Positions 155 to 59,528 are shown, counted from the first letter of the stretch. The stretch is DNA of 64,000 nucleotides from an uncultured Candidatus Saccharibacteria bacterium (GCA_964365185.1 CAYIOP010000003.1:40828-104827), one strand, 5' to 3'. Numbers and translations are program-made. Notes: generated by a model from the sequence alone, not told the origin.

Positions 155-718
155 CTAGGGTGTTGTATAAGTTATTACCCCAAAAGACGAAACTGAAATT
201 GTTGACGAAACCGACTGGTTGTTTACTAAATAAATCGCTACGCTACTTGTCTCAATGGCGTTAGATACATTTCTAAGTTCTCCTACAACTTCTGAAAAAG
301 AAATCGCCCGGAAACATTTTTCAGGCCCCGGCGGATCAGTCCAACCAGCCCAAGTTGTCGATTCATTATAATCAATCGCAGCCGGCAAAGTATTCCTATA
401 AGCAATTTTTCCCGGGTAATAGTAACCGTCATTAGTAAAATAAATTCCGTAATTAGACCATCTGCTTGATCCGCCGCACATTTTCCTCTCAAAAAATACC
501 CCCCAAGTAGTTTCTTTCTCCCAAGCCACTGCCCTATCTCGCGCGTTATTCAAAGAAAAAACAATGTTTTCCACCGAAGTATCAAATTTTTTCCGAACAT
601 TCTGGCTAAAAAAATTAACCATAATTACCGCCGTGATGACCGCGATAAGCGACACCACCACTAAAAACTCAATCAAAGTAAAACCCTCTCTCCGAGAATT
701 CCTCATCTCACTAATCAT
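155..718 (-). CDS. prepilin-type N-terminal cleavage/methylation domain protein (minor pilin/pseudopilin)
   Basis: N-terminus contains GFTLIEFLVVVSLIAV, a type IV prepilin motif followed by a hydrophobic helix; it lies in the pilus locus. Confidence 0.6.
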   Translation of the reverse strand: MISEMRNSRREGFTLIEFLVVVSLIAVITAVIMVNFFSQNVRKKFDTSVENIVFSLNNARDRAVAWEKETTWGVFFERKMCGGSSRWSNYGIYFTNDGYYYPGKIAYRNTLPAAIDYNESTTWAGWTDPPGPEKCFRAISFSEVVGELRNVSNAIETSSVAIYLVNNQSVSSTISVSSFGVITYTTP

Positions 719-764
719 AACACATTTACCCCAAACTATTCTGAAAAACTGAAATAAAATTCGC

Positions 765-1973
765 TTAAAACTGAGAAGTTAATTGATAAATCGGCAAAAT
801 AATCGAAACTGCCACAAAACCCACAAAAATACCCATAGTGAGCAGTAACGCCGGCTCCACAAAAGCCACTAAGGACTTAACACTAGTTTCTATTCGAGAA
901 GCGTAAAAATTAGCCAGTGTTTCTAATACATCCTCCAAATGGCCAGCTTTTTCTGATATTCCAATTAAATTAGTCACCAACTTCGGAAAAACCACTTCTC
1001 TCTTAAAGGCCTCGCCCACAGTAAGCCCTTTGGCTAAACCCTCTTCGCTAATTCTTCTTAAACTAAACTTAAATTCATCCACATTAACTGTGTCCGCCGC
1101 AATATTGATTGTCTGCATAATTGGCAGGCCCGCCTTCATAAGCGAGCTAGTGGTTGAAGCAAATCTCTGCACCGCCAGTTCCCGATATACTTTTTTTACC
1201 AGCGGCAACCGGCTAAAAACCTTCTGAATCAAATGATGACCAATTCGATTTTTCCAGAAAAAATAAGTTCCAAAAGTAATCAAAACCAAAAAAACCGATC
1301 CAAAAATTAAAGCGTTCGCGTTTATAAAAAGACCGACCGAAAAAACTACTCGCGAAAAAAAAGGTGGGTTGATACCACTCTCATCAAAAATTTTAGCGAT
1401 TTTAGGCAACGCAAAAGTCACCAAAAAAACGAAAATCATCACCGAGGTCACTAACAAAATCAACGGGTAAATCATCGCTGACTTAATGCTGTTTCTAAGT
1501 TTTGCCTCTTGCTCCAAAGAAACACTTACTTCTTCAAAGGTCTTCTGTAGATTTCCAGAAACCTCCGCGGCTTTAATTAAATTTATAAAAACCGGAGAAA
1601 ATATTCGAGGGTATCGGGCAAAGGTTTGATAAAACGGTTGACCTCTCCCTAAATTATCCCTTACTTCCAGTAAAAAATTCCGCATCGCGGGCTTTTCAAA
1701 ATCAGCAATTAAAATATCGATAGCGGAAAGCAAATCCGTACCTACTTTAAGCATTAAAGCCAGATACCGAGTCAAAAATATTTTGTCAGTTAAATTTATT
1801 CCTCCAAAAATCCGCCGCGCCGCCCGGCTGCCTCCAGCTTGAATCGGCCTCACTGATATCGGTTTAAGTTCCTTACCCACCAAAAACTGCAAGGCCTGCT
1901 GGAAAGTATCTGTTTCCAAATCCCCCTCGCTCATCTTGCCATTTTTATCTGAAGCTAAATAATGAAAAAGCAT
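765..1973 (-). CDS. pilC: type IV pilus assembly protein PilC / GspF-family inner-membrane platform
   Basis: 402 aa with a duplicated T2SS-F-like architecture and several transmembrane segments, immediately downstream of the PilB-like ATPase. Confidence 0.75.
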   Translation of the reverse strand: MLFHYLASDKNGKMSEGDLETDTFQQALQFLVGKELKPISVRPIQAGGSRAARRIFGGINLTDKIFLTRYLALMLKVGTDLLSAIDILIADFEKPAMRNFLLEVRDNLGRGQPFYQTFARYPRIFSPVFINLIKAAEVSGNLQKTFEEVSVSLEQEAKLRNSIKSAMIYPLILLVTSVMIFVFLVTFALPKIAKIFDESGINPPFFSRVVFSVGLFINANALIFGSVFLVLITFGTYFFWKNRIGHHLIQKVFSRLPLVKKVYRELAVQRFASTTSSLMKAGLPIMQTINIAADTVNVDEFKFSLRRISEEGLAKGLTVGEAFKREVVFPKLVTNLIGISEKAGHLEDVLETLANFYASRIETSVKSLVAFVEPALLLTMGIFVGFVAVSIILPIYQLTSQF

Positions 1974-2159
1974 TTCCTATATATTATAACCTATCTCACC
2001 TTTACTACCCTAATAAGTTTGTCAACTATTTTTAAAAAGACCTCTAGTTCAAAATAAACGGTATTTTTTATTGGATTTTTTACGTTAGGCCTTTTGGCTA
2101 CGGAAAAAATTCAAGAAAAAATATGCCCGCTTAAACCAACCCTAAAAAATAAAACCAAC

Positions 2160-3875
2160 TTACTCCCTAATCACCCTCAAGACCTCGTCAATCGTCGTCA
2201 TGGCAAGCTCCACTTTCATTAACCCGTCCTCAAACATCGTTCTCATCCCGTTTTCTCGCGCCGTCATCATCAATTTCTCCAAAGTAAAATCCTTGCTAAT
2301 AATTACTTTTTTAATTTTCTCATTCACATCTAAGTATTCAAAAATTCCCAACCGGCCTCGATAACCAGTTGTCCCGCAATTCGAACAACCCTTACCTCTG
2401 TAAAAATTTTTAGGCAATTTAACTTGGTTAGGATCCAAAGCCAATTCCGTAAGCTGATTCCGAATCACATCTTTTACTTCCGGCTCAATTTCATAAGAAG
2501 AAATACAGGTCTGGCAAATTCTCCTCACTAATCTCTGAGCAATAATCAAATTCAAAACCGAAACCACTAAAAAAGGCGGCACTTTTAAATCAAAAAGTCG
2601 GGGTATCACTGTCGGCGAATCATTAGTATGCACCGAAGACAAAAGCAAATGCCCGGTTAAAGCCGCCTGAACCGAAATTCCGGCTGTCTCCGCGTCTCGA
2701 ATCTCACCCACCATAATAATATTCGGGTCTTGCCTTAAAATCGCTCTAAGTCCCGAAGAAAAAGTAATACCAGCTTGAGTGTTAATCTGAGTTTGGTTAA
2801 CGTAGCGCATATTATATTCCACCGGATCCTCAACTGTAACAATATTGACTTGTGGCCGGTTTAAAATATCCATCAAAGCGTAAAGCGTCGTTGTTTTACC
2901 TGATCCAGTTGGTCCACAAATCAAGACCATGCCGTAGGCCGTCTTAAGATTTTCCCTCATCAACTTCACATCGTCCGCTAACACCCCTAATTCTTCCAAA
3001 GAAAGCGGCTTTTGAGCCGCCTCAAGTAACCGCATCACCACCTTCTCGCCGTAAAAAGTCGGTAAAATCGAAACCCTAACATCAATCACTTGATTAACAA
3101 TCTGATAATGAAAACGTCCGTCTTGAGGCTTAAAATGCTCGTCGATTTTAAGACCAGAGAGAATCTTAATTCTAGCCACGAGCGCCGAATGAATCGCTTT
3201 GGGCATCCTCATAATTTCAAAAAGAATGCCGTCAACTCGATAACGAACCAAAGTCACATCTTCTAAAACTTCAAGATGAATATCCGACGCTCTTGAAGAC
3301 ATGGCGTATGACAAAAGATTCTCCACAATTGAGACAATCGGCAAAAGCGAAGCTGCCTCCTCAATTGTTTTGGCTTCCCCTCGAAGCGACTCCTGAATAT
3401 TTTTTTCAATCAGCTGCTTAAAATCTTGAGATGATTGCAACCCATAAATGGCAAAGCCCCGATTCAAATCGCTATCCGTGGCCAAAAAAACATTAATCCT
3501 GGATTTAAGATGTTGCGATAAAAATTTAACCGTCTCCAAGTTACTCGGGTCAGTCATCGCCACATTAAAGCTTCCGTCTTTTTCTTTATTAAAAACGATC
3601 ACCTCTCTCCTCCTCGCAATGTCTTCAGGCAAAATCTTAACCACTTCCGGATCAACGTTTTTAGTGTCAAGCTTAGCCAATCCCACTCCCAAAATCGAAG
3701 CTAAAAGATTGCCCAAATAAGTCGCCTCAACTACACCCTGAGAAATTAATAAATCTAAAATGCCTTGATTTTTACGCTTAGCATCATCAACGATAGTTTG
3801 AAACCGTTCTGCAGTCACTAGTCCCTCTTGAACCAATTTATTTTTAAGTTGTTCCTCTGGAATCGGTAAATGCAT
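2160..3875 (-). CDS. pilB: type IV pilus assembly ATPase PilB (GspE family)
   Basis: Walker A motif GPTGSGKTTT, GspE signature regions, and a C-terminal Cys cluster (CQTC...CSNCGTTGYRGR). I moved the start to the ATG at 3875 (MHLPIPEEQ) to avoid the upstream overlap. Confidence 0.85.
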   Translation of the reverse strand: MHLPIPEEQLKNKLVQEGLVTAERFQTIVDDAKRKNQGILDLLISQGVVEATYLGNLLASILGVGLAKLDTKNVDPEVVKILPEDIARRREVIVFNKEKDGSFNVAMTDPSNLETVKFLSQHLKSRINVFLATDSDLNRGFAIYGLQSSQDFKQLIEKNIQESLRGEAKTIEEAASLLPIVSIVENLLSYAMSSRASDIHLEVLEDVTLVRYRVDGILFEIMRMPKAIHSALVARIKILSGLKIDEHFKPQDGRFHYQIVNQVIDVRVSILPTFYGEKVVMRLLEAAQKPLSLEELGVLADDVKLMRENLKTAYGMVLICGPTGSGKTTTLYALMDILNRPQVNIVTVEDPVEYNMRYVNQTQINTQAGITFSSGLRAILRQDPNIIMVGEIRDAETAGISVQAALTGHLLLSSVHTNDSPTVIPRLFDLKVPPFLVVSVLNLIIAQRLVRRICQTCISSYEIEPEVKDVIRNQLTELALDPNQVKLPKNFYRGKGCSNCGTTGYRGRLGIFEYLDVNEKIKKVIISKDFTLEKLMMTARENGMRTMFEDGLMKVELAMTTIDEVLRVIRE

Positions 3876-3925
3876 AAAAAAAATAATATTATTAGTCCCT
3901 CGCTCTTTAATAAAAGGGTGAGAAA

Positions 3926-4588
<663 letters not shown>

Positions 4589-4602
4589 CTAAACGATTAT
4601 GT

Positions 4603-5211
4603 TTAGAGATTTAATCCTGGCTGAGTTCCAACTTCATAGAGCCCACTAGAAGTTCCTCCGTCATTCTCAGAACTACTAGCAAACTTAGTACTTTCTAATC
4701 GAGTATTAACTTCAAAACCGCCAGATCCATCAGTCGCGTAAGCATAATAAGAACTGGAACTATTCGGCGAAACCGGATCAACTGGATAGGCAGAAACTGG
4801 AGCTCCGGAACTAATCGTATTTAAATTAACCGGTATCCAACCAACTCCACCCACATTTCTCTTATTTGACTCTGTTGTACTCGCAACTATAGTAATAGCC
4901 GCCGCAAAACGCCCGCCGCAATTAGCTATAGGTGGACGAGGAACAGAAGCTGCCGCATCGCTCGAAATAGAAATATAACACACACTTAAAGCCGTGCTAC
5001 TCCCGTAATTAGGCGCACTCACATCCGCTCCATATAAAGACAAAGCGCTTTTCAAAGTGGCGAAATCCGAAGTCCTGGTGGAGTCCCGAGCTTGTCTTAA
5101 TAATTCGGCCGGATTTAAAGTTAAGATCACGACCGTCGCCAGAATCGCGATAATACCAATTACAATCAGAAGCTCAATCAAAGTAAAACCCTTCACCTGT
5201 TTTCTAGGCAT
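4603..5211 (-). CDS. type IV pilin (major pilin, PilA-like)
   Basis: N-terminus MPRKQVKGFTLIELLIVIGIIAILA is a canonical prepilin leader with GFTLIE; 202 aa. Confidence 0.75.
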   Translation of the reverse strand: MPRKQVKGFTLIELLIVIGIIAILATVVILTLNPAELLRQARDSTRTSDFATLKSALSLYGADVSAPNYGSSTALSVCYISISSDAAASVPRPPIANCGGRFAAAITIVASTTESNKRNVGGVGWIPVNLNTISSGAPVSAYPVDPVSPNSSSSYYAYATDGSGGFEVNTRLESTKFASSSENDGGTSSGLYEVGTQPGLNL

Positions 5212-22408: not shown

Positions 22409-25400
22409 CTACAAGCCAGACGTAAAGTTCACAGTGCTTATAGGAATTGCTACCAAAGTCTTGGTCGGCAAGGTAAGCTCTGAAACTCCAGCTCCATCCG
22501 TAGCATCTGTCCACTTAATATGAGCTAGAGCATTAATCTCCGCTGTTAATGTCTGAATAACATTCGCCGCCCCAGCCAAAGTCTTAGTCAAATCAAGTCG
22601 TAAAGTCCACGTCCTAGAGGTGCCTTTGCCGACTATCTGACCAGCTGTGGTAGCGCCTAAGATAAAGCTCTTGGAGCAAGTAGTAGTACCACCTGCGCAA
22701 GCCGTAGATGTCACATTACCGCTTCCTAAAGCAGTATTATTCTCATCCAGCAAAGTTACTCCATCCAAGAAAGTGCTAATCGAAGGAGCACTACCCGAGA
22801 AAGTTACAGTCACGCTATTGACCACTAAGTCACCCGCATTATCAGCGCTAAAGGTAAGTTGGGCAAAATTATCCGAAGCACTCTTGCCTCTTCCAGTTGT
22901 CGCTCCAAGCGGCGTAGCAGTAAAGCCAAGCTTAGTTCGAAGCATAGTCATCGTATTCATTGTCGTTCCCGGCAATGAAACCGATGAAGTCGCGGACGAG
23001 GTCTTGCCATAAGCCACCACAACTTCTCCGGCGGTATCTATCGCGGTATCAGCTGTTGTAGTTGAAACTCTAAAGATGTGAGTGGTGTTATCAACTACTC
23101 CCGAATTACTGTAGCTTCCAACATCACCTTTCAAAGTCAAGAGAACTGAATTAGATCTCGGGACAATAAGCGGATCCGTGAATGTGAATTTGTGGTAATA
23201 ACCAGGACCTGGGCCAGATGTTGAAGCATAGGTCGTCTGGATTCCTACGGTCGCTATCAACGTACCTCCATTATAAAGATTCAAATTCCCAAAACCTTTC
23301 TTTGTAGTAGTGGTTGACGCTACTTGCTGGAAGACATAAAGATCAGTCACCTTTATATCATCAATGTTCGAGGTCTCAGCTAATCGGAAATAACCCAAAT
23401 CAACACCATTGGTCCCCATCACGATCTGATCTGATGGAGCTTTTGAGGTGTCGTGAGTTACGGTAAGCGTTGCCTGACCAGCCACCTTAACGTCTTGGCC
23501 AGCAGTCGAAGTGCAGCTAATTGAAGTATTAGTAGCTGCTCCTGATCCACTGCAAGCGCTAAGTGTTGTTACTGTCGCGTAAGTATTGGCCGCTGCTCCA
23601 GTTAAGATATCAGCTATCACGTCCACTGTCTTTGACTGACCAGCTGGAAGATTCAAACTACCAGTAAAGGTATAAGTAGCTGAAGCTGTTAGTGTCGGCT
23701 GGGTAGTGCCAAATTGCTGACTACCACTCATCAACTTCAAATTTTGGAAGTTGGTTGAGCTAGCGCTGGTTAAAATGCTAATCGTTGAAAGATTAACGCC
23801 TTCTGCCGAAGAAGCAGTTAACCTATAAGAACCAATTACCACCCCTTGGGCGCCAGCTGAATAAGTTACAGTGCCATAAGCCGGGTTTTGAGCCAGAGTT
23901 AAGGCATTCGCCGCTAAGGTGAGCACACTGCCGGTCACTGACGCGCTTGAAGCTGTGTTCGAAGAAGTCACGCCAGTTAAGTTGCTACTACCAGCATTAA
24001 GCCCAGCTCTTAGCGTAGAAAAGTCAGCTGTTGATTGAATATCACCTTTTAAGGTAAGGATTACGGCAGTATTGGCCGGAACCACATAGTTAATCGGTGA
24101 AGTCGAGTTACCAAAACAATTTACAGGCGTGCTGGTTGCTTGAGAATCACCGCTATCCGTACAAGTTGTATCCGTCATCAAAGATGAAACCGTTGAACCA
24201 ACCTGGTTCCCTCTATCATCCGTCAGAGAGATGTTTTTAATGGTGTTATCAAGATTAACCGTGCCGCCAGTAAACGTCAAATTAAAAGTCAAATGCTTCA
24301 CTCTTAACGCTTCACCAGCCGCGTAGATTTTAACTTTAAGTAAAGGTGTGTTGCTGCCACCCTTAGCCACATTGCCAGTCGGGGTATCCGTTGACAAGGT
24401 AACCGTGAGCGCTCCGGCGTTAATTGTGACGGTCGCGCTGGTAGTATCAGTTAAGGTAACTTTAATTGGAGTATTATACTGGGTGTCAATCGCGCTCACG
24501 TTGAAAGAATCATAGAATCCAAAATTAAAACTTCGATTCGGACTTCCCATTACATCAGCGTAAACTTGAATTGTATTATTCCCAGTTGTGAGCTTCACCA
24601 CGCTCGCGGAAAGGTCAAAATTGACATCGCCGCCAGCCGCGGAAGCTATCGTCGAACCAACATCAGCTCCATTAATCTTAAGTTTAAGGTTTTTCAGATC
24701 AGCTTTTTCGGCTGAACCAACCGCTTTTAAGGTTAAGCTCTTAATATTCACTGGGCTGTTTCCGACATTAAAATTCCAAGCCGAAACAATCACCCCTTGG
24801 GTACCAGCGTCAACGCTGGTTCCAATTGACGAAGAAGTAACCACTAAGGTAGCGATGCTCGGATTAGAAACCGTAGTCACTGTAAAGGTGGCTCCGTTTA
24901 ATGGGAAAGTGCCAGCTGGCGTGATGCTCGTACTATTGGCATCAGTCGCCATGACATCTGTCGCAGCCAGCAAACTAAAGGAGATAGTATTTCCGGCTGT
25001 AAGTCCTGAGGCTGGATCGATCGCCAACCAAACCTTCTTGGTCTGACCAGCATTGATATCAATGTCCAACCCAGTAAAGGTAATAACACCGCTTGAAAGC
25101 GAACTATATTGGGCAATAACTTTATTAGTGCCACCATCAACAATGTACGCTCCAGAGATGCCATTATCAGCCACTACTCCTCCTTTCTTAAACTTAAGTT
25201 CTGTCACGCTAACTCCACCCGAAGTTCCAGCCGTGAGATTAACTCCCAAAACTGGGGTTCGGCCAGCGCCAGCGATCAAAGAACCAGTTGTTGGATTATC
25301 AGAAGCATAACCAACCGCTAATCCACTTGAAGGAGCTGGTGGTTGACCAGGTCCAGGAGGAACATATCCGCCACCGCCTGCAAGCGCTGTGTATTTGGCT

Positions 25401-25831
25401 TTTGATTTAGCGCCAAAATAACCCGCTGTTGGCGTAACGCCGTTGGCTGCCTGCCAAGCTGAAACCGCTGCTTTGGTCTTAGCGCCAAAGTAATTTGATT
25501 CAGCCCCAGGCGCGCCCGGACCAGCTGTTGACACTGTAAATCCAGCGCCGTTTAGGTACTTCTGTAAACACATAACGTCGTCGCCAGTCACACCCATGGT
25601 GAGGTCACGAGTGAAACCACAAGCGCCGCCGGTTGGAGGAGTACCGCCTTGGCCTTGAATTTGCGCAGTGAGCGCTGCAATTTGAGCCATTAACGAATTA
25701 ATCATCGCTTGAAGCTCTGAAACAGTTTGTCCATGAGCCACTGGAATAGTGGGGACAAACATCATCACTCCCGAGAATCCCACAAAAGTGGCCATCGCGA
25801 GTGATAAAGAAACAATTTTCTTAGTACTCAT
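22409..25831 (-). CDS. large secreted/cell-surface protein with an N-terminal peptidoglycan-binding-like domain and a long Thr/Ser/Gly/Ala-rich repetitive region
   Basis: Signal peptide; a PG_binding_1-like segment (CLQKYLNGAGF...GAKTKAAVSAWQAANG...); then ~900 aa of low-complexity beta-rich repeats. GC content is clearly higher than in flanking genes. Confidence 0.6.
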   Translation of the reverse strand: MSTKKIVSLSLAMATFVGFSGVMMFVPTIPVAHGQTVSELQAMINSLMAQIAALTAQIQGQGGTPPTGGACGFTRDLTMGVTGDDVMCLQKYLNGAGFTVSTAGPGAPGAESNYFGAKTKAAVSAWQAANGVTPTAGYFGAKSKAKYTALAGGGGYVPPGPGQPPAPSSGLAVGYASDNPTTGSLIAGAGRTPVLGVNLTAGTSGGVSVTELKFKKGGVVADNGISGAYIVDGGTNKVIAQYSSLSSGVITFTGLDIDINAGQTKKVWLAIDPASGLTAGNTISFSLLAATDVMATDANSTSITPAGTFPLNGATFTVTTVSNPSIATLVVTSSSIGTSVDAGTQGVIVSAWNFNVGNSPVNIKSLTLKAVGSAEKADLKNLKLKINGADVGSTIASAAGGDVNFDLSASVVKLTTGNNTIQVYADVMGSPNRSFNFGFYDSFNVSAIDTQYNTPIKVTLTDTTSATVTINAGALTVTLSTDTPTGNVAKGGSNTPLLKVKIYAAGEALRVKHLTFNLTFTGGTVNLDNTIKNISLTDDRGNQVGSTVSSLMTDTTCTDSGDSQATSTPVNCFGNSTSPINYVVPANTAVILTLKGDIQSTADFSTLRAGLNAGSSNLTGVTSSNTASSASVTGSVLTLAANALTLAQNPAYGTVTYSAGAQGVVIGSYRLTASSAEGVNLSTISILTSASSTNFQNLKLMSGSQQFGTTQPTLTASATYTFTGSLNLPAGQSKTVDVIADILTGAAANTYATVTTLSACSGSGAATNTSISCTSTAGQDVKVAGQATLTVTHDTSKAPSDQIVMGTNGVDLGYFRLAETSNIDDIKVTDLYVFQQVASTTTTKKGFGNLNLYNGGTLIATVGIQTTYASTSGPGPGYYHKFTFTDPLIVPRSNSVLLTLKGDVGSYSNSGVVDNTTHIFRVSTTTADTAIDTAGEVVVAYGKTSSATSSVSLPGTTMNTMTMLRTKLGFTATPLGATTGRGKSASDNFAQLTFSADNAGDLVVNSVTVTFSGSAPSISTFLDGVTLLDENNTALGSGNVTSTACAGGTTTCSKSFILGATTAGQIVGKGTSRTWTLRLDLTKTLAGAANVIQTLTAEINALAHIKWTDATDGAGVSELTLPTKTLVAIPISTVNFTSGL

Positions 25832-44435: not shown

Positions 44436-44702
44436 TTATTTCTTCAGCCCCAATTTTTTCACTACTTTTAAATATTCGGCCGGTTCTTTCTTTTTTAAAT
44501 AATCCAAAAGTTTCCTCCGCTTTGAAACCATCTTTAGTAATCCCCTTCGCGAGTGGTTATCTTTCGGATTTTTCTTTAAATGTTTAGCCAATTCCTCAAT
44601 TTGGCGAGTCAAATTAGCCGTTTGCACCTGCGCCGAACCAGTGTCTTTATCGTGTTTTTGACTCTCCCCAATAATCTTGGCCTTCACTCGCTTAGTAAGC
44701 AT
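44436..44702 (-). CDS. rpsO: 30S ribosomal protein S15
   Basis: 88 aa with an S15-like helical hairpin (TGSAQVQTANLTRQIEELAKHLKKNPKDNHSRRGLLKMVSKRRKLLDYL). Confidence 0.85.
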   Translation of the reverse strand: MLTKRVKAKIIGESQKHDKDTGSAQVQTANLTRQIEELAKHLKKNPKDNHSRRGLLKMVSKRRKLLDYLKKKEPAEYLKVVKKLGLKK

Positions 44703-45911: not shown

Positions 45912-46150
45912 AAAAACCTCACAAAACACCAAAAAAATCATCCGTATATACCTATTTGTTAAGGCATTCATATACTACATTACAACATCGTATTTTATTT
46001 GACAAATAAAAAAATATATGATAAGATACTAGACGCAGAAATTCCGCTCTTCTTTAAAAAGAATATCGAAATTTTCTGTAGAAACGGCGATTCAAAAACT
46101 CGCCACCCGCAACTTGAAAATTGAAAATAACCAGATACAAGGAGAATTCA

Positions 46151-47242
46151 ATGAACAGTCTGTTTGTAGGAGCAGGAATCGGGCTAGTTATTGTTACTAT
46201 CGCCCTCCTCCTTTCCCTTTTCTATCTTACTCTTCTTCTCCTCGCGAAAAACAACTTGTTTTTCACGTATGTTGAAGAGGGTAGAGCTAAAGCCGTCATG
46301 GAATACGGCGAATTTCACAAGATGGTAATGGTTTATAAAGACCATTATTTTGACCAACTAGGTTTCGTTCGCCACGTAAGTGAAGAAGGAAAAATCGCCA
46401 AAATCGCGAATGGAAGAGTGGATGAAAAATCAATTCTCGACGACAAACATTACAAAATTGAACTCGAGAAACCGAAATCATTCTTGCCAAAAGGCATAAA
46501 ATGGATCGGTAACCCCTTCGTTTACTCTGTACATAGCTACACCTTTCGCTGGGATTCTTTAAGGCAAGAAGTCCTAGAAAGCGGAGCTATCATTCAAAAA
46601 ACCATCCATCACGACGAAAAAATAGATTACATCATTGTTCAAGATGATGTCTATGTAACTGTCGTGAAAGAAGCCGAGACTAAACAGATGGTTCCTTTAG
46701 ACATTCTAGCAGTTCTTACTATTCGCGTTGTAAACCCTTATAAAGCTTTATTCCGCACCCAAGAGTGGCTGGAACAAACCACCAACTTGATTACACCCGC
46801 CATTCGAAGTTTTGTAGGCAACAAAGAATATGAAGACCTAACTACCGAAATGAAAGAAGGGGGACAAACCCAGAAAGCAGCTGAACAAGGATTTCTCACT
46901 GAATCACGAATGGACGAAGAAATCCAAGAAGATTACGGAGTTCGCATCAAGAAAGTCGGTTTTATTAGAATCGACCCTTCCGGCGCAAGAGCTTTAAAAT
47001 ACGTTGCTGCTGCTTCCAAAAAATACGAAGCTCAGAAAAAAGCAGAATCAATTGAAGTTTTGGCTGATGCCGAGGAAGGTCGGATTCGGAAAGTTTACCA
47101 AGCCGTTCAAGATTTCGGTCCTACTGGCACCTCGATTCGAGGAGCAGAAGCGATTGAAAAATCGTCTCAAACAGGAAAATCGACCATCATTCCATTCCCA
47201 GTTGAAATTCTAAATTTCGTCAAACAGGTGATTGGTAGATAA
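46151..47242 (+). CDS. SPFH/Band-7 (stomatin/prohibitin-like) domain membrane protein
   Basis: N-terminal transmembrane helix, SPFH core (...GVRIKKVGFIRIDPS...) and a coiled-coil tail (AEEGRIRKV). I set the start at ATG 46151, preceded by AAGGAG; the track ORF begins at an upstream TTG. Confidence 0.6.
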   Translation: MNSLFVGAGIGLVIVTIALLLSLFYLTLLLLAKNNLFFTYVEEGRAKAVMEYGEFHKMVMVYKDHYFDQLGFVRHVSEEGKIAKIANGRVDEKSILDDKHYKIELEKPKSFLPKGIKWIGNPFVYSVHSYTFRWDSLRQEVLESGAIIQKTIHHDEKIDYIIVQDDVYVTVVKEAETKQMVPLDILAVLTIRVVNPYKALFRTQEWLEQTTNLITPAIRSFVGNKEYEDLTTEMKEGGQTQKAAEQGFLTESRMDEEIQEDYGVRIKKVGFIRIDPSGARALKYVAAASKKYEAQKKAESIEVLADAEEGRIRKVYQAVQDFGPTGTSIRGAEAIEKSSQTGKSTIIPFPVEILNFVKQVIGR

Positions 47243-47285
47243 CCATCATCTGAAACACCAAGATAGAAAGGAAGGTATTAACCCC

Positions 47286-48419
47286 GTGAAGAAGTTCGTA
47301 AAATACGGCTTAATAGCTCTTGGCTCTTTGGCCCTAATAACAGTGGTTGGATTGATTACCAATATCAATTCTAAAACACTTTGGAACGGTCTCCTCTTTT
47401 TTATTGGACTCTTTGTAATTCTGACTATCGGTATATTCGCTATCGCGATGATAGCTAAAATTACAAGATCATCCGGTCAACGCCCAACTCCAACCGGAAC
47501 AACTCCTCAAAAATCCTTTTGGGAGAAATTCCTCGAGAGTCCGATTGGAAAATCCACAGCCACCGCCACTTTTCTGATTTTCCTCTACGGCCTCATCCTC
47601 TGGCTTCTCTACGGACCAATTTCTCAAATGATCCGATCTAAATGGGCAATGCCTGAATTTTCAGCGTGGATGCTTGTAACTATCCTCGGCTTAGCATTAA
47701 TCACGCCTGCGCTTTGGAAACTCTTCGCTGTCGCTGGAATCCCTGGTGACTACAAAAATGTCAAAAGTGGACTCCGTGCCGTCTCCTTAGCTATAGCTAT
47801 CTTCCTCGCTTACGCCCATTATGGAGGAAAACAACTATTCGACGAAAAGAGTGGACAAGCCAATTTCATGGTTGATGAAAAAAACGGGCAGATGCACTTT
47901 ATCAAGCCAGCAAGTGGCGAAGATAGCGACACCGCTCGTTTTTCACCTGAAACCGGAGAGAAGCTCCGGCCCGGCAAAAAGGAAGATGCAAAAAAAATTG
48001 GGCCTCCATCTCAAAACATCCTCCAAAGAGCCGTAGAGGTAGTCAAAAGGGAAAATCAAACCCCTTGCGACACAGTGGTTCTCGCTCCCAACACCACTAC
48101 CTATTCACCCACCCAAAACCAAAGCCAGTGGGTACTCTACGTCATACCAGCTGGGAACGGCTGGTCGGGAGTAATATCCGAAAGCGACAAAATGGCTGGA
48201 GGCTACTGGTTTCAAACAGAAGTAAAAACTTTGGTTCAAGCCAGAAAAAAAGACGTATGGAGTATTAGTCAAGAAACGTACGTCGAGGGAAAATGGCTGC
48301 CCCCGATTCCAAACGGGAAAGGGATAAAAGTGCCAAAAGAATATTTCTTCAACACTTCCAACCTTAAGTGGCGCCAGGACCCTGAGCAAGAAATTCAAGT
48401 TCTTGCTCGGTGGAACTAA
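47286..48419 (+). CDS. membrane protein with four transmembrane helices and a C-terminal extracytoplasmic domain (hypothetical), likely co-operonic with the SPFH gene
   Basis: GTG start at 47286 preceded by AAGGAAGG; four hydrophobic helices and a ~200-aa soluble tail with no recognised motif. Confidence 0.45.
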   Translation: MKKFVKYGLIALGSLALITVVGLITNINSKTLWNGLLFFIGLFVILTIGIFAIAMIAKITRSSGQRPTPTGTTPQKSFWEKFLESPIGKSTATATFLIFLYGLILWLLYGPISQMIRSKWAMPEFSAWMLVTILGLALITPALWKLFAVAGIPGDYKNVKSGLRAVSLAIAIFLAYAHYGGKQLFDEKSGQANFMVDEKNGQMHFIKPASGEDSDTARFSPETGEKLRPGKKEDAKKIGPPSQNILQRAVEVVKRENQTPCDTVVLAPNTTTYSPTQNQSQWVLYVIPAGNGWSGVISESDKMAGGYWFQTEVKTLVQARKKDVWSISQETYVEGKWLPPIPNGKGIKVPKEYFFNTSNLKWRQDPEQEIQVLARWN

Positions 48420-48461: not shown

Positions 48462-48494
48462 AAAGCTCTGCGCTCAACCGCGCAGAGCTTTTTT
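48462..48494 (+). terminator. rho-independent terminator
   Basis: GCTCTGCGC-tcaacc-GCGCAGAGC followed by TTTTTT, directly after the 47286..48419 CDS. Confidence 0.7.
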
Positions 48495-48573: not shown

Positions 48574-48942
48574 TTATAAGGGAACGTCTACATCTGCACA
48601 TGTTCCGGCATCGCCTCCCAAAATCGATCCCACCACTCTTGGTACCGCTGTAGCCAAAAGTCCCACTGCCACCGCAATTGCCGCATAAAGAATCTGTTTA
48701 TTCGCTGCTGCCACCTTCTCTGAATCCCCGCCCGCAGTCAAATACTTGAAAGCCGCCATAATAATAAAGATCACCGCCAGCACAATTAATACCACAAGCA
48801 AAATTCTAGTTATCCTCTCAATCACTTTTATCACATCGCAAAAATCCCTTACCGCGGGATCCTGTTGAGCTAAAGCCAATACCGGCACTATCACCTGCAA
48901 GGCCAAAACCGACCACAAAGTTATCTTTTTAAACTTTTCCAT
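48574..48942 (-). CDS. small secreted two-helix membrane protein, VirB2/TrbC-pilin-like (paralog 1)
   Basis: Signal peptide (…VLALAQQ), then two hydrophobic helices, with the motif LTAGGDSEK…NKQILYAAIAVAVG shared with the ORFs at 49041 and 49454. Confidence 0.4.
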   Translation of the reverse strand: MEKFKKITLWSVLALQVIVPVLALAQQDPAVRDFCDVIKVIERITRILLVVLIVLAVIFIIMAAFKYLTAGGDSEKVAAANKQILYAAIAVAVGLLATAVPRVVGSILGGDAGTCADVDVPL

Positions 48943-49040
48943 AATCTCTAAAATCTATTAATTATTTAGTCGCATAGAAACTTGCCTCGACCTTTCAATA
49001 TATTTATTATATATCGATCTTAAAAAAATTGCCACCCAAC

Positions 49041-49403
49041 TTAGCTACCCACGCCTAAAACATCTTTAATAATAAAAACTACTCCTTTCGCCAAAAGAAT
49101 TATACCAAAACCCACAGCCGCGTATAAAATTGTTTTCCTACCCTTGCTAAATTTCTCCGGGTCTCCAGCCGCAGTCAAAATCTGAAAAGCCCCTACAATC
49201 ACCATCACCGTTGCAATCGGTGCTGAAAGCAAAATTAAACCGTTAATAATACTATTTACGCATTCCTCTAAAGTCACGCACTTTAAAGGATTGGGAATGG
49301 TGAATCCTTGCCCACCCGGCTCTCCATCTTGAGCCAACGCCACGCCAAAAAACAAAAAATTCCCTGCCAAAAATATAAAAATTCCAATCTTTAATCCCTT
49401 CAT
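49041..49403 (-). CDS. small secreted two-helix membrane protein, VirB2/TrbC-pilin-like (paralog 2)
   Basis: Signal peptide (…GVALAQ), two hydrophobic helices, and the motif LTAAGDPEKFSKGRKTILYAAVGFG. Confidence 0.4.
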   Translation of the reverse strand: MKGLKIGIFIFLAGNFLFFGVALAQDGEPGGQGFTIPNPLKCVTLEECVNSIINGLILLSAPIATVMVIVGAFQILTAAGDPEKFSKGRKTILYAAVGFGIILLAKGVVFIIKDVLGVGS

Positions 49404-49453
49404 TTTTTAAATTTTAGCATAAAGCAAAATAAATTACACTCTAAAAATTTATC

Positions 49454-50353
49454 TTACGGACATGCCTGAGACGTAAGCTCAAGATGAAGATGACCAGCAG
49501 TAGCATAGGCAGTCGGATTCCCGCCACAATTAGCATACTCATTAATCACTCTTAACCCACACGCCCGAGCATCATCAAGAATTCCACCGATCACTTCGCA
49601 ATTATTACGATCCATTTCTCTCGAAGGAGTCACGTCTATAGCGCAACCATTATAATGTTGTGGACTTTGATGCCGAGAAATAGGTGGAAAGGCCTCGGTT
49701 ACCCGAATATCCCCATAATAATTTCTTGAAAGACAATCCAAAAGAGGAATGAGGTTTGGATTAGCTTTTTTATTAGCTGTTGGTTTAAAAGTAAAGTTTT
49801 CAAAATCGATATTCACGCAATCAGGACAGTTCGCCGCCATACCACCCCCTCCACCTCCTCCGCCGCCTCCGCCGCCCGTGGTACTTGTTGTCACTGGTTG
49901 AGGTAAATATTCAAAATCTGGCACACTGCAACTAATGTTCGGCCAAGCTATCCGCGTCTCACCCTCTCCTCGATTTCCAATCAGCCATAAAAATGTGGCC
50001 ACAATCACAAACGAGAGAAGCACAATTCCGACTCCCACCGCGGTTGAGGTCAAAATTTTCTTGCCGGAATTTAACCGCTCTTCCGACCCACTAGACATCA
50101 AAATCATCCCACCACCTATAATCAGCATTATTGGCGTAATAATAACCACGAGCAAGGTTAACCCAAAACTAATCAAATTTTGAACCAACTCCACTACATC
50201 ACAAAGGTCATCACAAACCCCGCCTTGACACGCTATAAGCGGCCCCCAAAAAGGAAATTCAAATTCCGCTGCCGAGCCCACTTTTGGTTGAACCATAAAA
50301 AATAATCCCAAAACCGCTATTCCTAAAATAATAAAGATATATTTTTTGTTCAT
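49454..50353 (-). CDS. fusion protein: N-terminal pilin-like two-helix module (paralog 3), poly-Gly linker, then a Cys-rich M15-type zinc peptidase-like domain
   Basis: N-terminal part carries …GGGMILMSSGSEERLNSGKKILTSTAVGVG…; a Gly run GGGGGGGGGGGG; the C-terminus has HYNGCAIDV (HxxGxAxD) and GHLHLE (HxH), reminiscent of zinc D-Ala-D-Ala carboxypeptidase/M15 ligands, plus about 10 Cys. Confidence 0.45.
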   Translation of the reverse strand: MNKKYIFIILGIAVLGLFFMVQPKVGSAAEFEFPFWGPLIACQGGVCDDLCDVVELVQNLISFGLTLLVVIITPIMLIIGGGMILMSSGSEERLNSGKKILTSTAVGVGIVLLSFVIVATFLWLIGNRGEGETRIAWPNISCSVPDFEYLPQPVTTSTTGGGGGGGGGGGGMAANCPDCVNIDFENFTFKPTANKKANPNLIPLLDCLSRNYYGDIRVTEAFPPISRHQSPQHYNGCAIDVTPSREMDRNNCEVIGGILDDARACGLRVINEYANCGGNPTAYATAGHLHLELTSQACP

Positions 50354-50354
50354 T

Positions 50355-51653
50355 CTACTTGGCTGCTCTTAAAATCTCCGAAACCCGCGCCTCGGCTTGA
50401 ATCAAAATTTTATCCGCCGCCCGTAAGTCCAAATTTGCGTCTCTTATGGCCTCGGAGAAAATCTGATCCACTTTCTCGCCATCCACTTGCACCCATGATC
50501 TAGCAATCAGCGCCTGTCTCGCAAAAATTTCTTGCTCCGGGTCGCCAATGGCCTCGGCAATTAACGATTTCAAAGCCGCTGGCCTCTTTCCTTCTTGAAT
50601 CGAATATTGCCTCTGCAATTCTTTATTAGTTGAAACGAAAATCACAAAATCCCACGCCTGGGTTTGATAACGACTCCTTTTGGACACTCCAAAACCCAAA
50701 TACCGAGCATAACTAATAGCTTTTTCCTCATCCACTTGCGGCACTTTGGTTACGCCGATATTTAAAAAAGGATTTTTCTTTTTGATATTCTCCAAATCAC
50801 TTTTGTAACCGAAAATCATAGCGGTTTTCCCTTGACTAAAACTCACTCCCTCATCTCCTAAATTATCATTCCAAGTGAAATAAGACGAAAGTGGATTGGC
50901 AAACTGAAGATAAAAATTAAAGGCCTGAAAACCAATTCCTCGCTTGCCGTCTTTGGCAAAAGTGGCACGAGATAAATCTGGAGCAACCATCTGCGTTCCA
51001 TTTTGAAGCATTAACAACCCCAAAATATCCGCCGCTCTTTTAATCGCTCCCCCAGAGCCACCGATAGCCGCTCCCGCTCTGTCTATATTTTTCTCAAAAC
51101 CTGATTTTTTAAGCAAAGGAATAACCTGCTGAAATTCCGGCCAAGTTTTTGGCGGATAAATAATTCCCGCCTGGTCGAAAAAATCTTTGTTGTAATACAA
51201 AACTAGAGTATCTAAATAAAGCGGCAAAGCATAAATTTTCCCGGCGCTTACAAAATCCTGCTCAATCACTTGAGGAAAAAGTTCCCGTAGTTTAATCAGT
51301 CCAAAGTCCTCTCGGTTAAGCGCGGCGAGTTTAGCTTTATTTTTTAATAAAGAATGATTGTCAACTAAAAAAACATCCGGCCCCTCGCCCAAAGCCAAGG
51401 CCTCAAGCAAACGCTCGTCATAACTGGCCTCATCAATTTGTTCGTACTGTATCTCTATATTAGGTCTGGCTATCCTAAAATTATCCAAGAGTAATTTAGA
51501 AGAACGCGCCGTCTCTATACCCCAAACCTTAAGTTTAGCCGGCTGATTACCTTGCTCGTTGCCGGCAATATTCATCACAATCAAAACCACAATCAAAATC
51601 GCCAAGCTCACCCCGATCACCATCATCACTATTTGTCTTTTTGAAAAATTCAT
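50355..51653 (-). CDS. extracellular solute-binding protein (ABC transporter, SBP family 1-like)
   Basis: N-terminal transmembrane anchor and a ~400-aa periplasmic binding-protein fold (…KIYALPLYLDTLVLYYNKDFF…); no cognate permease or ATPase lies adjacent. Confidence 0.65.
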   Translation of the reverse strand: MNFSKRQIVMMVIGVSLAILIVVLIVMNIAGNEQGNQPAKLKVWGIETARSSKLLLDNFRIARPNIEIQYEQIDEASYDERLLEALALGEGPDVFLVDNHSLLKNKAKLAALNREDFGLIKLRELFPQVIEQDFVSAGKIYALPLYLDTLVLYYNKDFFDQAGIIYPPKTWPEFQQVIPLLKKSGFEKNIDRAGAAIGGSGGAIKRAADILGLLMLQNGTQMVAPDLSRATFAKDGKRGIGFQAFNFYLQFANPLSSYFTWNDNLGDEGVSFSQGKTAMIFGYKSDLENIKKKNPFLNIGVTKVPQVDEEKAISYARYLGFGVSKRSRYQTQAWDFVIFVSTNKELQRQYSIQEGKRPAALKSLIAEAIGDPEQEIFARQALIARSWVQVDGEKVDQIFSEAIRDANLDLRAADKILIQAEARVSEILRAAK

Positions 51654-57573: not shown

Positions 57574-58701
57574 TTAATTAAGTCGTTCAAATTTTAACTT
57601 CAATATCCTACGCAAAGATTCGTCGATTCTTTTTTCGTTAATTTTATTTTCTAAAACCGCCTGGCGCACTGCCTCCACTATCCCTTTATGCTTCGAGATA
57701 GTAAGCGTACTGATAATCATATCAGCCCCGGCATTAATAGCTTGAATGACTAATTGGCCAATCGGCAAATCGCCAGTTGATGCCATCTCTAAATCATCAG
57801 TGATAATCACGCCTTCATATTTTAATTGACCCCTTAATATCTCAATAAGAAAAACTGGTGAAAGCGTTGCTGGGACGTCATCGATTTCCTTAACCACAAC
57901 GTGCGCCGTCATCAGAACTTCCGGATGGGCCTGCCCAATAACATACTGAAAAGGAACAAGCCACTTTTCAAATTCATCGCCACCAGAAGAAACCGCAAAA
58001 TTCGTATGTGGATCTAATGTTCCGTTGCCATACCCCGGAAAATGTTTAGGCACCGCAATAATATCCGCCTCTCGGTAACCTTCAATCATGGCTTGGCCTA
58101 ACTTGCCAATAAGCTCGGGGGTTGCCTCAAAAACACGTTTGGATTTGAATAAATAGGCCTGAGGATTATTAACATAATCAATCACGGGCGAAAAATTCAT
58201 GTTAATGCCGAGCTCACGGAGTTCCTCGCCTCGCCTTTTAGCAATTCGCCGGGCTTCCTCAATGCTTTTTATCTCCATCTGAGGCGTCAGCTCACTTAGA
58301 AATTTAAACCGAACATAATCACCTCCTTCTTGATCGGTCGCAATAAATAAGGGAATTTCTGAATGTAATTTTAAATCACTAATCATTTTTATCACTCCTT
58401 CTCTATCGTTAACATTCCGAGCCAAAAGATTTACGCCTCCAACCCCGTAAACATCGATCATCTCTTTTATATGGTCATCAAAGTAAGGGTTTTTAAAACC
58501 AACAACCATCATCTGGCCGATTTTTTTCTCAAGCGGCAGAGTTTTAATGATTAACTCGATTTTATCCGTGTAATCTTGTTGAGATGATACTTTTTCAGGT
58601 GACGCAAAATAAATTTCTGCCTGTTGCGTACTACCTAAAGCAAAAATTAGGGCAATTATCGATGCCCCTAACACAGCTAAAAACGCAACCTTGCTTTTCA
58701 T
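57574..58701 (-). CDS. nagZ: beta-N-acetylhexosaminidase (GH3, NagZ-like)
   Basis: GH3 N-terminal-domain motifs KHFPGYGNGTLDPH and …ITDDLEM…. I placed the start at Met8 (ATG 58701), which overlaps the folD stop in an ATGA junction; the track ORF extends to 58722. Confidence 0.7.
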   Translation of the reverse strand: MKSKVAFLAVLGASIIALIFALGSTQQAEIYFASPEKVSSQQDYTDKIELIIKTLPLEKKIGQMMVVGFKNPYFDDHIKEMIDVYGVGGVNLLARNVNDREGVIKMISDLKLHSEIPLFIATDQEGGDYVRFKFLSELTPQMEIKSIEEARRIAKRRGEELRELGINMNFSPVIDYVNNPQAYLFKSKRVFEATPELIGKLGQAMIEGYREADIIAVPKHFPGYGNGTLDPHTNFAVSSGGDEFEKWLVPFQYVIGQAHPEVLMTAHVVVKEIDDVPATLSPVFLIEILRGQLKYEGVIITDDLEMASTGDLPIGQLVIQAINAGADMIISTLTISKHKGIVEAVRQAVLENKINEKRIDESLRRILKLKFERLN

Positions 58702-59528
58702 AAATCCGAATTCAACTTCCAAAAATTTTCGTAGAGCTTAGCCACTAGTATCGGCCCGGTGCCGCCCGGCGTTGGCGTGTAACTAATATTTCTATCCTCC
58801 TCGCCATCGGGATCAAAATCCCCATAAATTTTATTGCCTTCCCGGCTATAACCAAAATCCACCACCAGCGCTCCTTCCTTAATGTCCTTAGCCGAAAAAA
58901 TTCCAGCCACCCCCGTTCCGCTCACCACCACATCCGCATCCTTAAGTCGCGCCGGAATACCTTTCACCGTACTGTCAAAAACAGTTAATTCTCCCACCCG
59001 GTTCTGCAACCAAAACCCCAGCGGTTTGCCAATTAAAAATCCCGCTCCAATCAAAACCACTTTCAAATCCCTTAGCGATTTGCGATTTGCGATTTGCAAA
59101 TTAAGTATTTCCTCGAGCGCCTCCACGGCCGGCGGCGCCACCTCGCCTCGTCCGGTATAAAACGCGCCCAGCGCTTTTTCGCTCAAACAATCCACGTCTT
59201 TTTCTTTTGGAATCGCGTTTAAAACATAATGTTTATTGATTGATTCCGGCAAAGGTAGTTGCACCAAAAACCCGCCGCAATTTTTCGGCCGTGTGAGCAT
59301 CCCAATCTCCGCCCGCAAATCATCCGTGGTCACTCCCTCCGGCGCCCGGTGCAGCCGAAAACTAATTCCCAATTCCTCCGCCACTCGCTTTTTTTGGTTC
59401 AAAAAATTCTCCGATGCCAAATCATCTCCCACCAGCATCGCTCCCATAAACTTCCCCTGCCATTCCTCTTGGTGTTCCTTAAGTTTTTCAATTATCCCCA
59501 CCGCAATTTTTTTCCCGTCAATAATCAT
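58698..59528 (-). CDS. folD: bifunctional methylenetetrahydrofolate dehydrogenase/cyclohydrolase FolD
   Basis: Collinear with FolD (…VVLIGAGFLIGKPLG…). Contains an in-frame (GATTTGC)x3 insert at 59077-59097 encoding …QIANRKS…. Confidence 0.85.
   Translation of the reverse strand: MIIDGKKIAVGIIEKLKEHQEEWQGKFMGAMLVGDDLASENFLNQKKRVAEELGISFRLHRAPEGVTTDDLRAEIGMLTRPKNCGGFLVQLPLPESINKHYVLNAIPKEKDVDCLSEKALGAFYTGRGEVAPPAVEALEEILNLQIANRKSLRDLKVVLIGAGFLIGKPLGFWLQNRVGELTVFDSTVKGIPARLKDADVVVSGTGVAGIFSAKDIKEGALVVDFGYSREGNKIYGDFDPDGEEDRNISYTPTPGGTGPILVAKLYENFWKLNSDL
59077..59097. repeat. tandem heptamer (GATTTGC)x3 inside folD
   Basis: Three perfect 7-nt units; the same unit is present four times inside glyA at 61045-61072. 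Confidence 0.8.

Follow-up and report, generated by a model that had tools for sequence, protein, structure and literature searches.

Why would a bacterial chromosome carry a pilin-like protein joined to what looks like a cell-wall peptidase, next to a solute-binding protein (SBP) without a transporter? The question is raised by positions 48574-51653 of a 64,000-nucleotide stretch (hereafter the window) from an uncultured Candidatus Saccharibacteria bacterium (GCA_964365185.1, CAYIOP010000003.1:40828-104827), an ultra-small groundwater organism of the Patescibacteria or candidate phyla radiation (CPR). The locus encodes two small pilins of the Pfam family PF18895, a third pilin-like protein that continues into a Hedgehog/DD-peptidase (LAS) domain, and the SBP. 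We consider it fairly probable that the locus serves the Patescibacterial type IV secretion system (T4SS) as a chromosomal "satellite", equipped with a pilin-anchored wall-cutting peptidase. The fusion is most likely a wall-cutting helper of the T4SS that these bacteria need for life on their hosts.

Organization of the locus

All four open reading frames (ORFs) that the initial annotation had described were recovered on the minus strand with the same boundaries. The operon and the parts of the fusion protein are as follows.

50355-51653, minus strand: SBP gene, 432 amino acids (aa), first gene of the operon
49454-50353, minus strand: pilin-peptidase fusion gene, 299 aa
50270-50353, minus strand: predicted Sec signal peptide of the fusion, residues about 1-28 (MNKK, a hydrophobic core and VGSA/AE; sequence reading and hydropathy)
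49973-50206, minus strand: pilin-like hairpin of the fusion, residues about 50-127, loop SSGSEERLNSGKK (AlphaFold2 (AF2), PF18895 and hhalign)
49829-49972, minus strand: disordered linker of the fusion, residues 128-175 (predicted local distance difference test (pLDDT) of AF2 <50 at residues 127-173)
49457-49828, minus strand: Hedgehog/DD-peptidase (LAS) domain of the fusion, residues 176-299 (Foldseek, profile, conservation)
49041-49403, minus strand: pilB, 120 aa
48574-48942, minus strand: pilA, 122 aa

The start codon of the fusion lies 1 nucleotide from the stop codon of the SBP gene. SBP, pilin-peptidase, pilB and pilA form one operon, conserved beside gyrA.

The three proteins share a pilin-family domain

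The initial annotation had described three paralogues with a common motif. The motif LT(A/S)GGD(S/P)EK...K.IL was present, and BLASTP and profile comparison supported the paralogy: pilA matched pilB at E 5e-13 (32% identity over 113 aa), pilB matched the fusion at E 7e-10 (39% identity over 64 aa), and the mutual identity of the pilin paralogues in the window was 24-33%. A profile of fusion N-termini aligned with a profile of 16 small pilins at an hhalign probability of 98.3% (E 1.9e-14), and the small-pilin alignment showed a conserved inter-helix loop, (T/S)(A/S)GGD(P/S)EK. Against PF18895 (T4SS_pilin, which covers VirB2-like pilins of Patescibacteria and monoderms), pilA scored 32.8 bits and pilB 40.8 bits, both above the gathering score of 26.6. 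The NCBIfam model NF045849 (Mbov_0395 pilin-like conjugal transfer protein) also matched pilA, at a sub-threshold E of 1.4e-7. Judged by sequence, the window pilins belong to PF18895 and are not filed under the TrbC family. Of the VirB2/TrbC-type assignment made earlier, the VirB2-like part stood, with PF18895 covering pilA and pilB and the fusion homologous to them; the TrbC part did not, as the model PF04956 stayed below threshold for pilA and gave no match for pilB or the fusion.

Hydropathy showed an N-terminal hydrophobic leader and two more hydrophobic segments in each of the three proteins, and AF2 modelled a hairpin in the fusion (helices at residues 50-86 and 91-127), which bears out the proposed signal-peptide and two-helix architecture. 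Helix 2 of the fusion ends in a conserved TFLWLIGN. In the fusion family, Cys 42, 47 and 51 are conserved ahead of helix 1 and Cys 142 past helix 2; the window fusion has 12 Cys in all, against 0 in the SBP. In the pilA orthologues, a single Cys is retained immediately ahead of helix 1 and another close to the C-terminus. Because conserved Cys flank the hairpin, its two ends probably lie close together on the oxidising outside, which would agree with the topology of VirB2-type pilins. Foldseek matched the fusion model weakly to the Aeropyrum conjugative pilus 8dfu (probability 0.69); this is the one likeness to solved conjugative pilins, since the pilin profile had no match among PDB sequences.

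The 16 small pilins, drawn from six loci, fell into two distinct orthologue groups, both found in every genome. One is pilA, the "FCDVI / KYLTAGGDSEKV" group, with 62-74% identity between the window protein and its orthologues in the related loci L001, L004 and L010. The other is pilB, the "FTIPNPL-C...C / QILTA(A/G)GDPEKF" group, with an orthologue in every related locus. By these alignments pilA and pilB are stable orthologue groups and not freely varying copies.

The 12-Gly linker that had been read as leading into a Cys-rich domain was confirmed as a Gly12 run at fusion residues 160-171 (nucleotides 49841-49876), written in mixed GGN codons. Linkers of the homologues are Gly/Pro/Thr-rich and variable in length, and in the AF2 model the window linker is predicted to be a flexible tether of roughly 45 residues. 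A slippage-prone or phase-variable poly-Gly tract was considered and rejected because of the mixed GGN codons.

The C-terminal domain of the fusion is a Hedgehog/DD-peptidase (LAS) domain

The C-terminal 124 residues of the fusion contain 8 Cys, H233-YNGCAI-D240 (H-x6-D, that is, HxxGxAxD) and H288-L-H290, so both zinc-ligand patterns noticed earlier are in place. The combination of H-x6-D, H-x-H and Glu defines the Hedgehog (Hh)/DD-peptidase (LAS) class (Roelink 2018, PMC6027127). No Pfam or NCBIfam model matched the C-domain. When the domain was compared with PDB structures by Foldseek, the matches were Hedgehog N-domains (E 4e-5 to 1e-3, TM(target) 0.5-0.59), the L-Ala-D-Glu endopeptidase ChiX (E 2.5e-4), T5-type endolysins (RB49 and LysECD7, about 3e-3) and MepA (0.05). 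The top viral match was a "Peptidase M15". A profile of 37 curated domains (alignment A7) reached Sonic Hedgehog (Shh) in the PDB at E 1.1e-6. This alignment paired VTE, H228 with Shh H135 in GHH, HYxGxAVD with H141 and D148, and NEY with YYE (E177, the general-base Glu; PMC6027127); we take Shh H135, the counterpart of H228, to be a second-shell His. The C-domain is a Hedgehog/DD-peptidase (LAS) domain, closest to Hedgehog N-domains. The initial annotation had called it an M15-type peptidase-like domain: the fold, the mechanism class and the conserved residues agree with this description, and membership of the M15 family itself was not borne out, as no Pfam M15 model matched. HH_signal was the only related Pfam model, with weak matches in 6 of 119 homologues (best 1.6e-4).

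An exhaustive search with a hidden Markov model of the domain (E<=1e-3) gave 306 cluster representatives, and the homologue search with the 37-sequence domain profile gave 3 matches. Across 119-149 aligned homologues, H233, D240 and E272 were invariant, and E220, H228, G236, G266 and H290 were conserved in at least 90%. Within the 37 curated domains, E220 (in VTE), H228, H233, G236, D240, E272 and H290 were invariant and H288 was conserved in at least 90%. The zinc-ligand positions, whose loss among homologues had been named as an outcome that would speak against a peptidase, were thus kept (H233 and D240 without exception, H290 in at least 90%). The other refuting outcomes named there, a lack of pilin-family or peptidase-fold similarity and a paralogue family missing from relatives, did not arise either. 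We propose H233, D240 and H290 as zinc ligands, E272 (in NEY) as the general base, and H228 and H288 as second-shell or catalytic residues. With this pattern, the C-domain appears to hold a complete, conserved zinc-peptidase active site.

These data bear on a different view of the domain, in which it is not catalytic and serves as a zinc-dependent ligand-binding or adhesin head on a pilin stalk, recognising peptides or glycans of the host wall. The nearest solved structures being Hedgehog signalling domains, whose peptidase activity is debated (PMC6027127), and the display of the domain on a long tether would both suit such a role. However, the catalytic set, including E272 and H-x-H, is invariant or nearly so in more than 100 diverged homologues, whereas Drosophila Hh lost those residues (PMC6027127), and relatives bear the lysozyme-like SLT_3, an enzyme and not an adhesin, at the same locus position. 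We regard a non-catalytic module as very unlikely.

The fusion is widespread and its hydrolase domain appears exchangeable

PF18895 was present in 75 of the 119 domain-bearing proteins scanned (best 1.7e-12), and by a hydropathy screen 83 of 149 proteins have a hairpin of two segments ahead of the catalytic core; in these the median number of Cys past the hairpin was 10. The other partner domains among the 119 were LysM (7), PG_binding_1 (2), Glucosaminidase (2) and SLT (1), and this company ties the LAS domain to peptidoglycan. The window fusion protein also recurs in metagenome contigs from Hainich groundwater. By these counts the pilin-peptidase fusion is a widespread design, not a one-off. 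One homologue, P0029 (L015:10001-11110, MFH1161698.1), carries the NCBI label "pilin" and nothing more, and the other fusion homologues that were looked up had no name in the sources. The enzyme domain is invisible to present annotation pipelines.

The initial annotation had suggested looking for the same genes together in relatives, and they were found in L001, L004, L010, L005, L006 and L016. The window GyrA shares 69% identity with the GyrA of a Candidatus Liptonbacteria metagenome-assembled genome. In L001, L004 and L010 the order Lactamase_B_3, small transmembrane (TM) protein, gyrA, SBP, pilin-X, pilB, pilA was kept, followed after pilA by two convergent genes, xerC, S15, NYN and PNPase. 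The same order was kept in part in L005, L006 and L016.

The domain borne by the pilin varied among these loci. In the window, L004 and L010, the LAS domain is carried by a "TFLWLIGN"-type pilin, and in L001 the same type of pilin carries an unrelated domain (type-2) instead. In L005 and L006, the first pilin is free of any enzyme and the second, of "INPxLT" type, bears SLT_3 (PF18895 33.9 bits and PF18896 31.3 bits in one protein), and in L016 the LAS domain is on the second pilin. Proteins combining PF18895 and PF18896 are common. The N-terminal anchors of P0039 (LAS) and P0165 (SLT_3; L005:10760-11626) are 90% identical, and a near-identical anchor (90%) in P0170 (L017:10001-10570), which lies within a VirB4 cluster, is followed by a short Cys-rich tail. 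Because anchors of 90% identity bear LAS, SLT_3 or a short Cys-rich tail, recent cassette exchange or domain shuffling is indicated, and the hydrolase appears to be an exchangeable cassette on near-identical pilin anchors.

Several further features of the related loci were recorded. The type-2 C-domain occurs in P0005 (L001:10001-10972), P0006 and P0008; it is 130-150 aa long and Cys-rich, with the motifs TGGTE.GH..HG.G..VD and HWH. It had no Pfam match, a profile search of the PDB returned nothing credible, and its AF2 model (pLDDT 64) gave nothing in Foldseek. No kinship of the type-2 domain with LAS was detected, hhalign aligning the terminal HxH alone (probability 0.4%), and we make no claim that type-2 is a peptidase. 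Between the hydrolase-pilin and pilB, relatives encode short proteins (160-180 aa) that are secreted, share a "(V/M)NNFYK" motif and match no Pfam model (L005:11639-12136, L006:7579-8118, L016:3943-4931); these are absent from the window locus. In L010, an rve-family transposase (L010:10803-11687) is inserted between pilA and the convergent pair, which indicates that this junction tolerates insertion.

Relatives place the same architecture beside VirB4

P0029, from Candidatus Jorgensenbacteria, is a 369-aa pilin + LAS protein (PF18895 31.4 bits), and its gene lies two genes downstream of VirB4 in a PrgI, TraC-like, VirB4 cluster beside yidC, rnpA, dnaA and dnaN. The Liptonbacteria sequence JAHFLL010000001.1 (840,672 bp) contains both kinds of locus: the gyrA-SBP-pilin locus at about 51-71 kb (L005), and a PrgI, TraC-like, VirB4, x, x, pilin cluster at about 816-836 kb beside dnaA (L017). 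The pilin of this T4SS cluster, P0170, has an anchor 90% identical to that of the SLT_3 fusion at the gyrA locus.

These arrangements agree with what has been published on Patescibacterial T4SS. PF18895 is the family that defines their VirB2-like pilins, which form arrays of 2-11 divergent copies in 383 assemblies, and a pilin lay near virB4 in 1,135 of the 1,948 assemblies having both, so that pilin genes are often found away from virB4 (Quinonero-Coronel et al. 2025, PMC12102498). In Southlakia epibionticum (S. epibionticum), the six-gene PF18895 array SEML1_0014-0019 is essential (PMC10633639, PMC12857230). Two further essential genes flank VirB4 there: SEML1_0007, with an ECOD Hedgehog/DD-peptidase domain at residues 951-1105, and SEML1_0006, with lysozyme-like and Cys-proteinase domains (PMC10633639).

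The window itself was scanned with Pfam for all ORFs of at least 421 aa and most of those of 237-400 aa; it did not extend to the 402-aa ORF at 765-1973 or to some twenty ORFs between 110 and 260 aa. Within this scope, the earlier statement that VirB4 and VirD4 are absent from the window holds.

The linkage data also bear on a T4SS-independent explanation. Here the fusion would be a housekeeping wall peptidase anchored in the membrane, the PF18895 hairpin a non-polymerising two-TM anchor, the substrate the cell's own peptidoglycan as it is remodelled in growth and division, and the small paralogues unrelated small membrane proteins. The deeply syntenic core block around the locus (Lactamase_B_3, gyrA, xerC, S15, PNPase) fits this explanation, as do the lack of a T4SS ATPase among the scanned window ORFs and the fact that LAS/M15 enzymes among the Foldseek fold matches, LdcB and MepA, are housekeeping wall enzymes. 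However, the same anchor and domain architecture occurs inside a VirB4 cluster (P0029), the pilin anchor of the Liptonbacteria T4SS cluster is 90% identical to that of the hydrolase fusion at the gyrA locus, two dedicated pilin orthologue groups invariably accompany the hydrolase, and the PF18895 pilins in the T4SS cluster of S. epibionticum are essential. We regard a housekeeping role as unlikely. An origin from a mobile element, such as an integrative and conjugative element, was rejected: all relatives have the xerC-like integrase within this deeply syntenic core, and neither a relaxase nor VirD4 was found among the scanned ORFs.

The SBP is coupled to the fusion

The SBP matched the Pfam models SBP_bac_1 (7.5e-26) and SBP_bac_8 (1.1e-22), and among solved structures it came nearest to SBPs for sugars, trehalose/maltose and oligosaccharides. 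The protein has a single TM segment, at its N-terminus, contains no Cys and lacks a lipobox. These features point to a membrane-anchored SBP of the sugar/oligosaccharide type. In the window and in L001, L004, L005, L006, L010 and L016, the first pilin-like gene immediately follows the SBP gene, and the stop codon of the one often adjoins the start codon of the other. Neither an ABC permease nor an ABC ATPase turned up among the scanned window ORFs or in the related loci examined, although such partners could be encoded elsewhere in the genome; the earlier description of an SBP without transporter partners was correct for the scanned ORFs. The strict gene coupling suggests that the SBP may be functionally tied to the pilin-peptidase, for example by binding released glycan or muropeptide fragments.

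The same coupling could be expected of an offensive effector or toxin, in which the pilin-peptidase, as an antibacterial or host-lysing weapon, would degrade host peptidoglycan for nutrients, possibly after release by linker cleavage, with the SBP capturing the products. In all relatives, translation of an oligosaccharide-type SBP is coupled to that of the fusion, the hydrolase types are exchangeable as in polymorphic toxins, and a GH3 (NagZ-like) gene lies 6 kb away. However, nothing resembling an immunity gene is present, the SBP lacks a transporter partner among the scanned window ORFs, no sign of release was seen, and the locus has one copy with conserved orthology, unlike fast-evolving toxin arrays. 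We hold an effector to be highly improbable.

Proposed role of the pilin-peptidase

Taking the T4SS satellite locus as the best explanation, we propose the following course of events. The three pilin-like proteins would be exported through Sec and their signal peptides cleaved, leaving two-helix membrane hairpins with both ends outside. From the outside C-terminus of the first paralogue, the fusion, the Gly-rich tether would lead to the disulfide-rich zinc metallopeptidase. The hairpin would keep the enzyme either membrane-bound or built into the pilin polymer as one of its minor subunits, and the tether would bring it to the peptidoglycan, where stem peptides or cross-links would be cut. The wall thereby opened locally for the T4SS or its pilus would be that of the cell itself or, where the two cells touch, that of the host, and the SBP might bind the glycan or muropeptide fragments set free. 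The fusion would then be a functional counterpart of VirB1, PrgK and TraG, and of SEML1_0007.

A bolder form of this proposal makes the PF18895 hairpin a general "plug-in" by which exchangeable wall-degrading enzymes (LAS, SLT_3, type-2) are loaded into a T4SS pilus or membrane platform; an enzymatically armed pilus of conjugative type in a monoderm would then drill through the host wall while the orphan SBP captures the fragments. On this view, the large CPR family of LAS domains may also count, by sequence, as one of the closer relatives that the Hedgehog ligand domain has among prokaryotes. We think this extension quite unlikely.

Several results weigh against a T4SS satellite locus with a wall-cutting enzyme. 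The locus lies among housekeeping genes in deep synteny, which also fits housekeeping wall remodelling, and none of VirB4, VirD4, VirB6 or PrgI was found among the Pfam-scanned ORFs of the 64-kb window. The pilus of the Patescibacterial T4SS is itself hypothesised, with none visualised according to the literature (PMC12857230, PMC10633639). As a pilin, the fusion scored 18.5 bits against PF18895 (E 2e-3), below the gathering threshold of 26.6, and pilA reached PF04956 (TrbC) with 17.1 bits (E 0.0067), below the gathering threshold of 27.9. As a peptidase, the window fusion matched none of the Pfam M15 models (VanY, Peptidase_M15_2/3/4) at E<=1, nor did any of the 119 homologues at E<=0.01, and Hedgehog is debated as an enzyme (PMC6027127). 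The AF2 model of the fusion is moderate, with a mean pLDDT of 63; the C-domain reached 62-91 per 10-residue block, mostly above 80.

Surrounding genes in the window

One further element was found at the 3' side of the operon.

48462-48491: perfect hairpin with a 12-bp stem, separating the pilin operon from the convergent genes

This hairpin is terminator-like on both strands and is likely a bidirectional terminator forming the 3' end of the pilin operon; it was the sole notable result of the promoter/terminator scan, which as a whole showed no enrichment relative to shuffles. Searching Rfam with the locus and its leader gave nothing below E 0.3.

Converging on the pilin operon are two plus-strand genes: 46121-47242, for an SPFH/Band_7-like protein with one TM segment, and 47232-48419, which overlaps it and encodes a 4-TM protein with a soluble C-domain. 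This convergent pair (46121-48419) accompanies the pilin array in L001, L004, L010, L005 and L006, and may functionally be part of the pilin locus. rpsO (S15), at 44436-44702, lies a few genes from the pilin array (pilA at 48574-48942). In S. epibionticum, the non-essential PF18895 pilin SEML1_0024 directly adjoins S15 (SEML1_0025), and the proximity in both genomes may be an old remnant of synteny.

The type IV pilus cluster at the start of the window (155-5211, minus strand) is a separate system: its pilins (155-718 and 4603-5211) have prepilin-type GFTLIE leaders, which agrees with the earlier remark that the VirB2-like pilins are unlike them. The cluster also contains a likely PilC (765-1973, judged from 3-4 hydrophobic segments), PilB/T2SSE (2160-4049) and a polytopic protein (3926-4588). 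Besides this cluster, the window holds parAB, gyrB, topA, ftsK and recA. A secreted protein of 1140 aa with a signal peptide and 8 Cys is encoded at 22409-25831 (minus strand), its sole recognisable domain being an N-terminal PG_binding_1. The Glyco_hydro_3 gene, at 57574-58722 (minus strand), encodes a NagZ-like beta-N-acetylhexosaminidase that could process peptidoglycan-derived sugars; L001 has different genes at that place.

Significance and comparison with known systems

The T4SS and its pilin array are essential to the epibiotic life of the sole genetically tractable Patescibacterium. Earlier publications cover pilin arrays, pilin genes that lie apart from virB4, and Hh/DD-peptidase or lysozyme proteins beside VirB4. 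In the searchable literature we did not find a description of the pilin-hydrolase fusion class, the cassette exchange, the gyrA-SBP satellite locus or this Hedgehog-like family; the adjacent accessions PF18895 and PF18896 suggest that the Pfam curators saw SLT_3 fusions. Our findings add that subunits of the pilin family routinely carry a fused peptidoglycan hydrolase domain, in at least 75 sequence clusters this peptidase and in others SLT_3, and that such fusions occur next to VirB4 as well as in the conserved gyrA-SBP satellite locus. They offer the hypotheses that wall cutting is built into the pilin set and that the SBP is its functional partner, and they flag a Hedgehog-like peptidase family that no model covers and whose members are now annotated as "pilin" or "hypothetical".

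A close parallel to the locus as a whole is found in the VirB2-like arrays of Patescibacteria (PMC12102498). Both are tandem divergent paralogues of the same Pfam family, PF18895 (mean identity 25% in the survey, 24-33% in the window), chromosomal and without a relaxase. Unlike those arrays, the window has one member covalently fused to a peptidoglycan-type peptidase, and its array is co-transcribed with an SBP and fixed beside gyrA, with pilA and pilB as stable orthologues. The PF18895+PF18896 fusions of Patescibacteria follow the same design of hairpin, linker and wall hydrolase, occupy the same locus in L005 and L006, and have anchors up to 90% identical to those of LAS fusions; their domain is of the glycosidase/lytic-transglycosylase type and has a Pfam model, whereas the window LAS domain has none.

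Among proteins of the T4SS, SEML1_0007 (Wang et al. 2023, Table S2) has the fold class of the window domain, assigned with a Sonic Hedgehog template, is T4SS-associated and is presumed to act on the wall. It is a 1113-aa multidomain protein without a pilin fusion, whereas the window protein has 299 aa and tethers its domain to a pilin hairpin. VirB1, PrgK, TraG (pIP501) and TgaA have a similar proposed role, the local opening of the wall for a secretion channel, and the T4SS hydrolases of monoderms are membrane-anchored and multi-domain (PMC12102498). They use lytic transglycosylase and CHAP/NlpC domains on an ordinary TM anchor, whereas the window protein has a LAS zinc peptidase on a pilin-family anchor and no sequence homology to VirB1.

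The domain itself has two sets of relatives. With the Hedgehog N-domain and the bacterial Hh/DD-peptidases (PMC6027127) it shares the H-x6-D and H-x-H zinc motif and the VTE strand, together with the Glu equivalent to Shh E177 and the His equivalent to Shh H135, and Hedgehog gave the best fold and profile matches. Identity to Hedgehog is nevertheless about 18-21%, the Hedgehog Ca-binding residues are absent save for the VTE Glu, and the window domain has an insertion between the NEY strand and H-x-H and is rich in disulfide-type Cys; it is not among the >50% identical "bacHh" proteins. With the M15C L-Ala-D-Glu endopeptidases (ChiX, 5opz; T5, RB49 and LysECD7) and MepA (M74) it shares the fold and zinc site (Foldseek E 2.5e-4 to 0.05), whereas it differs from them in having no Pfam M15 match. 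These enzymes act on peptidoglycan peptides, the kind of substrate that we propose for the pilin-peptidase, with a bond specificity that is not transferable to the window domain.

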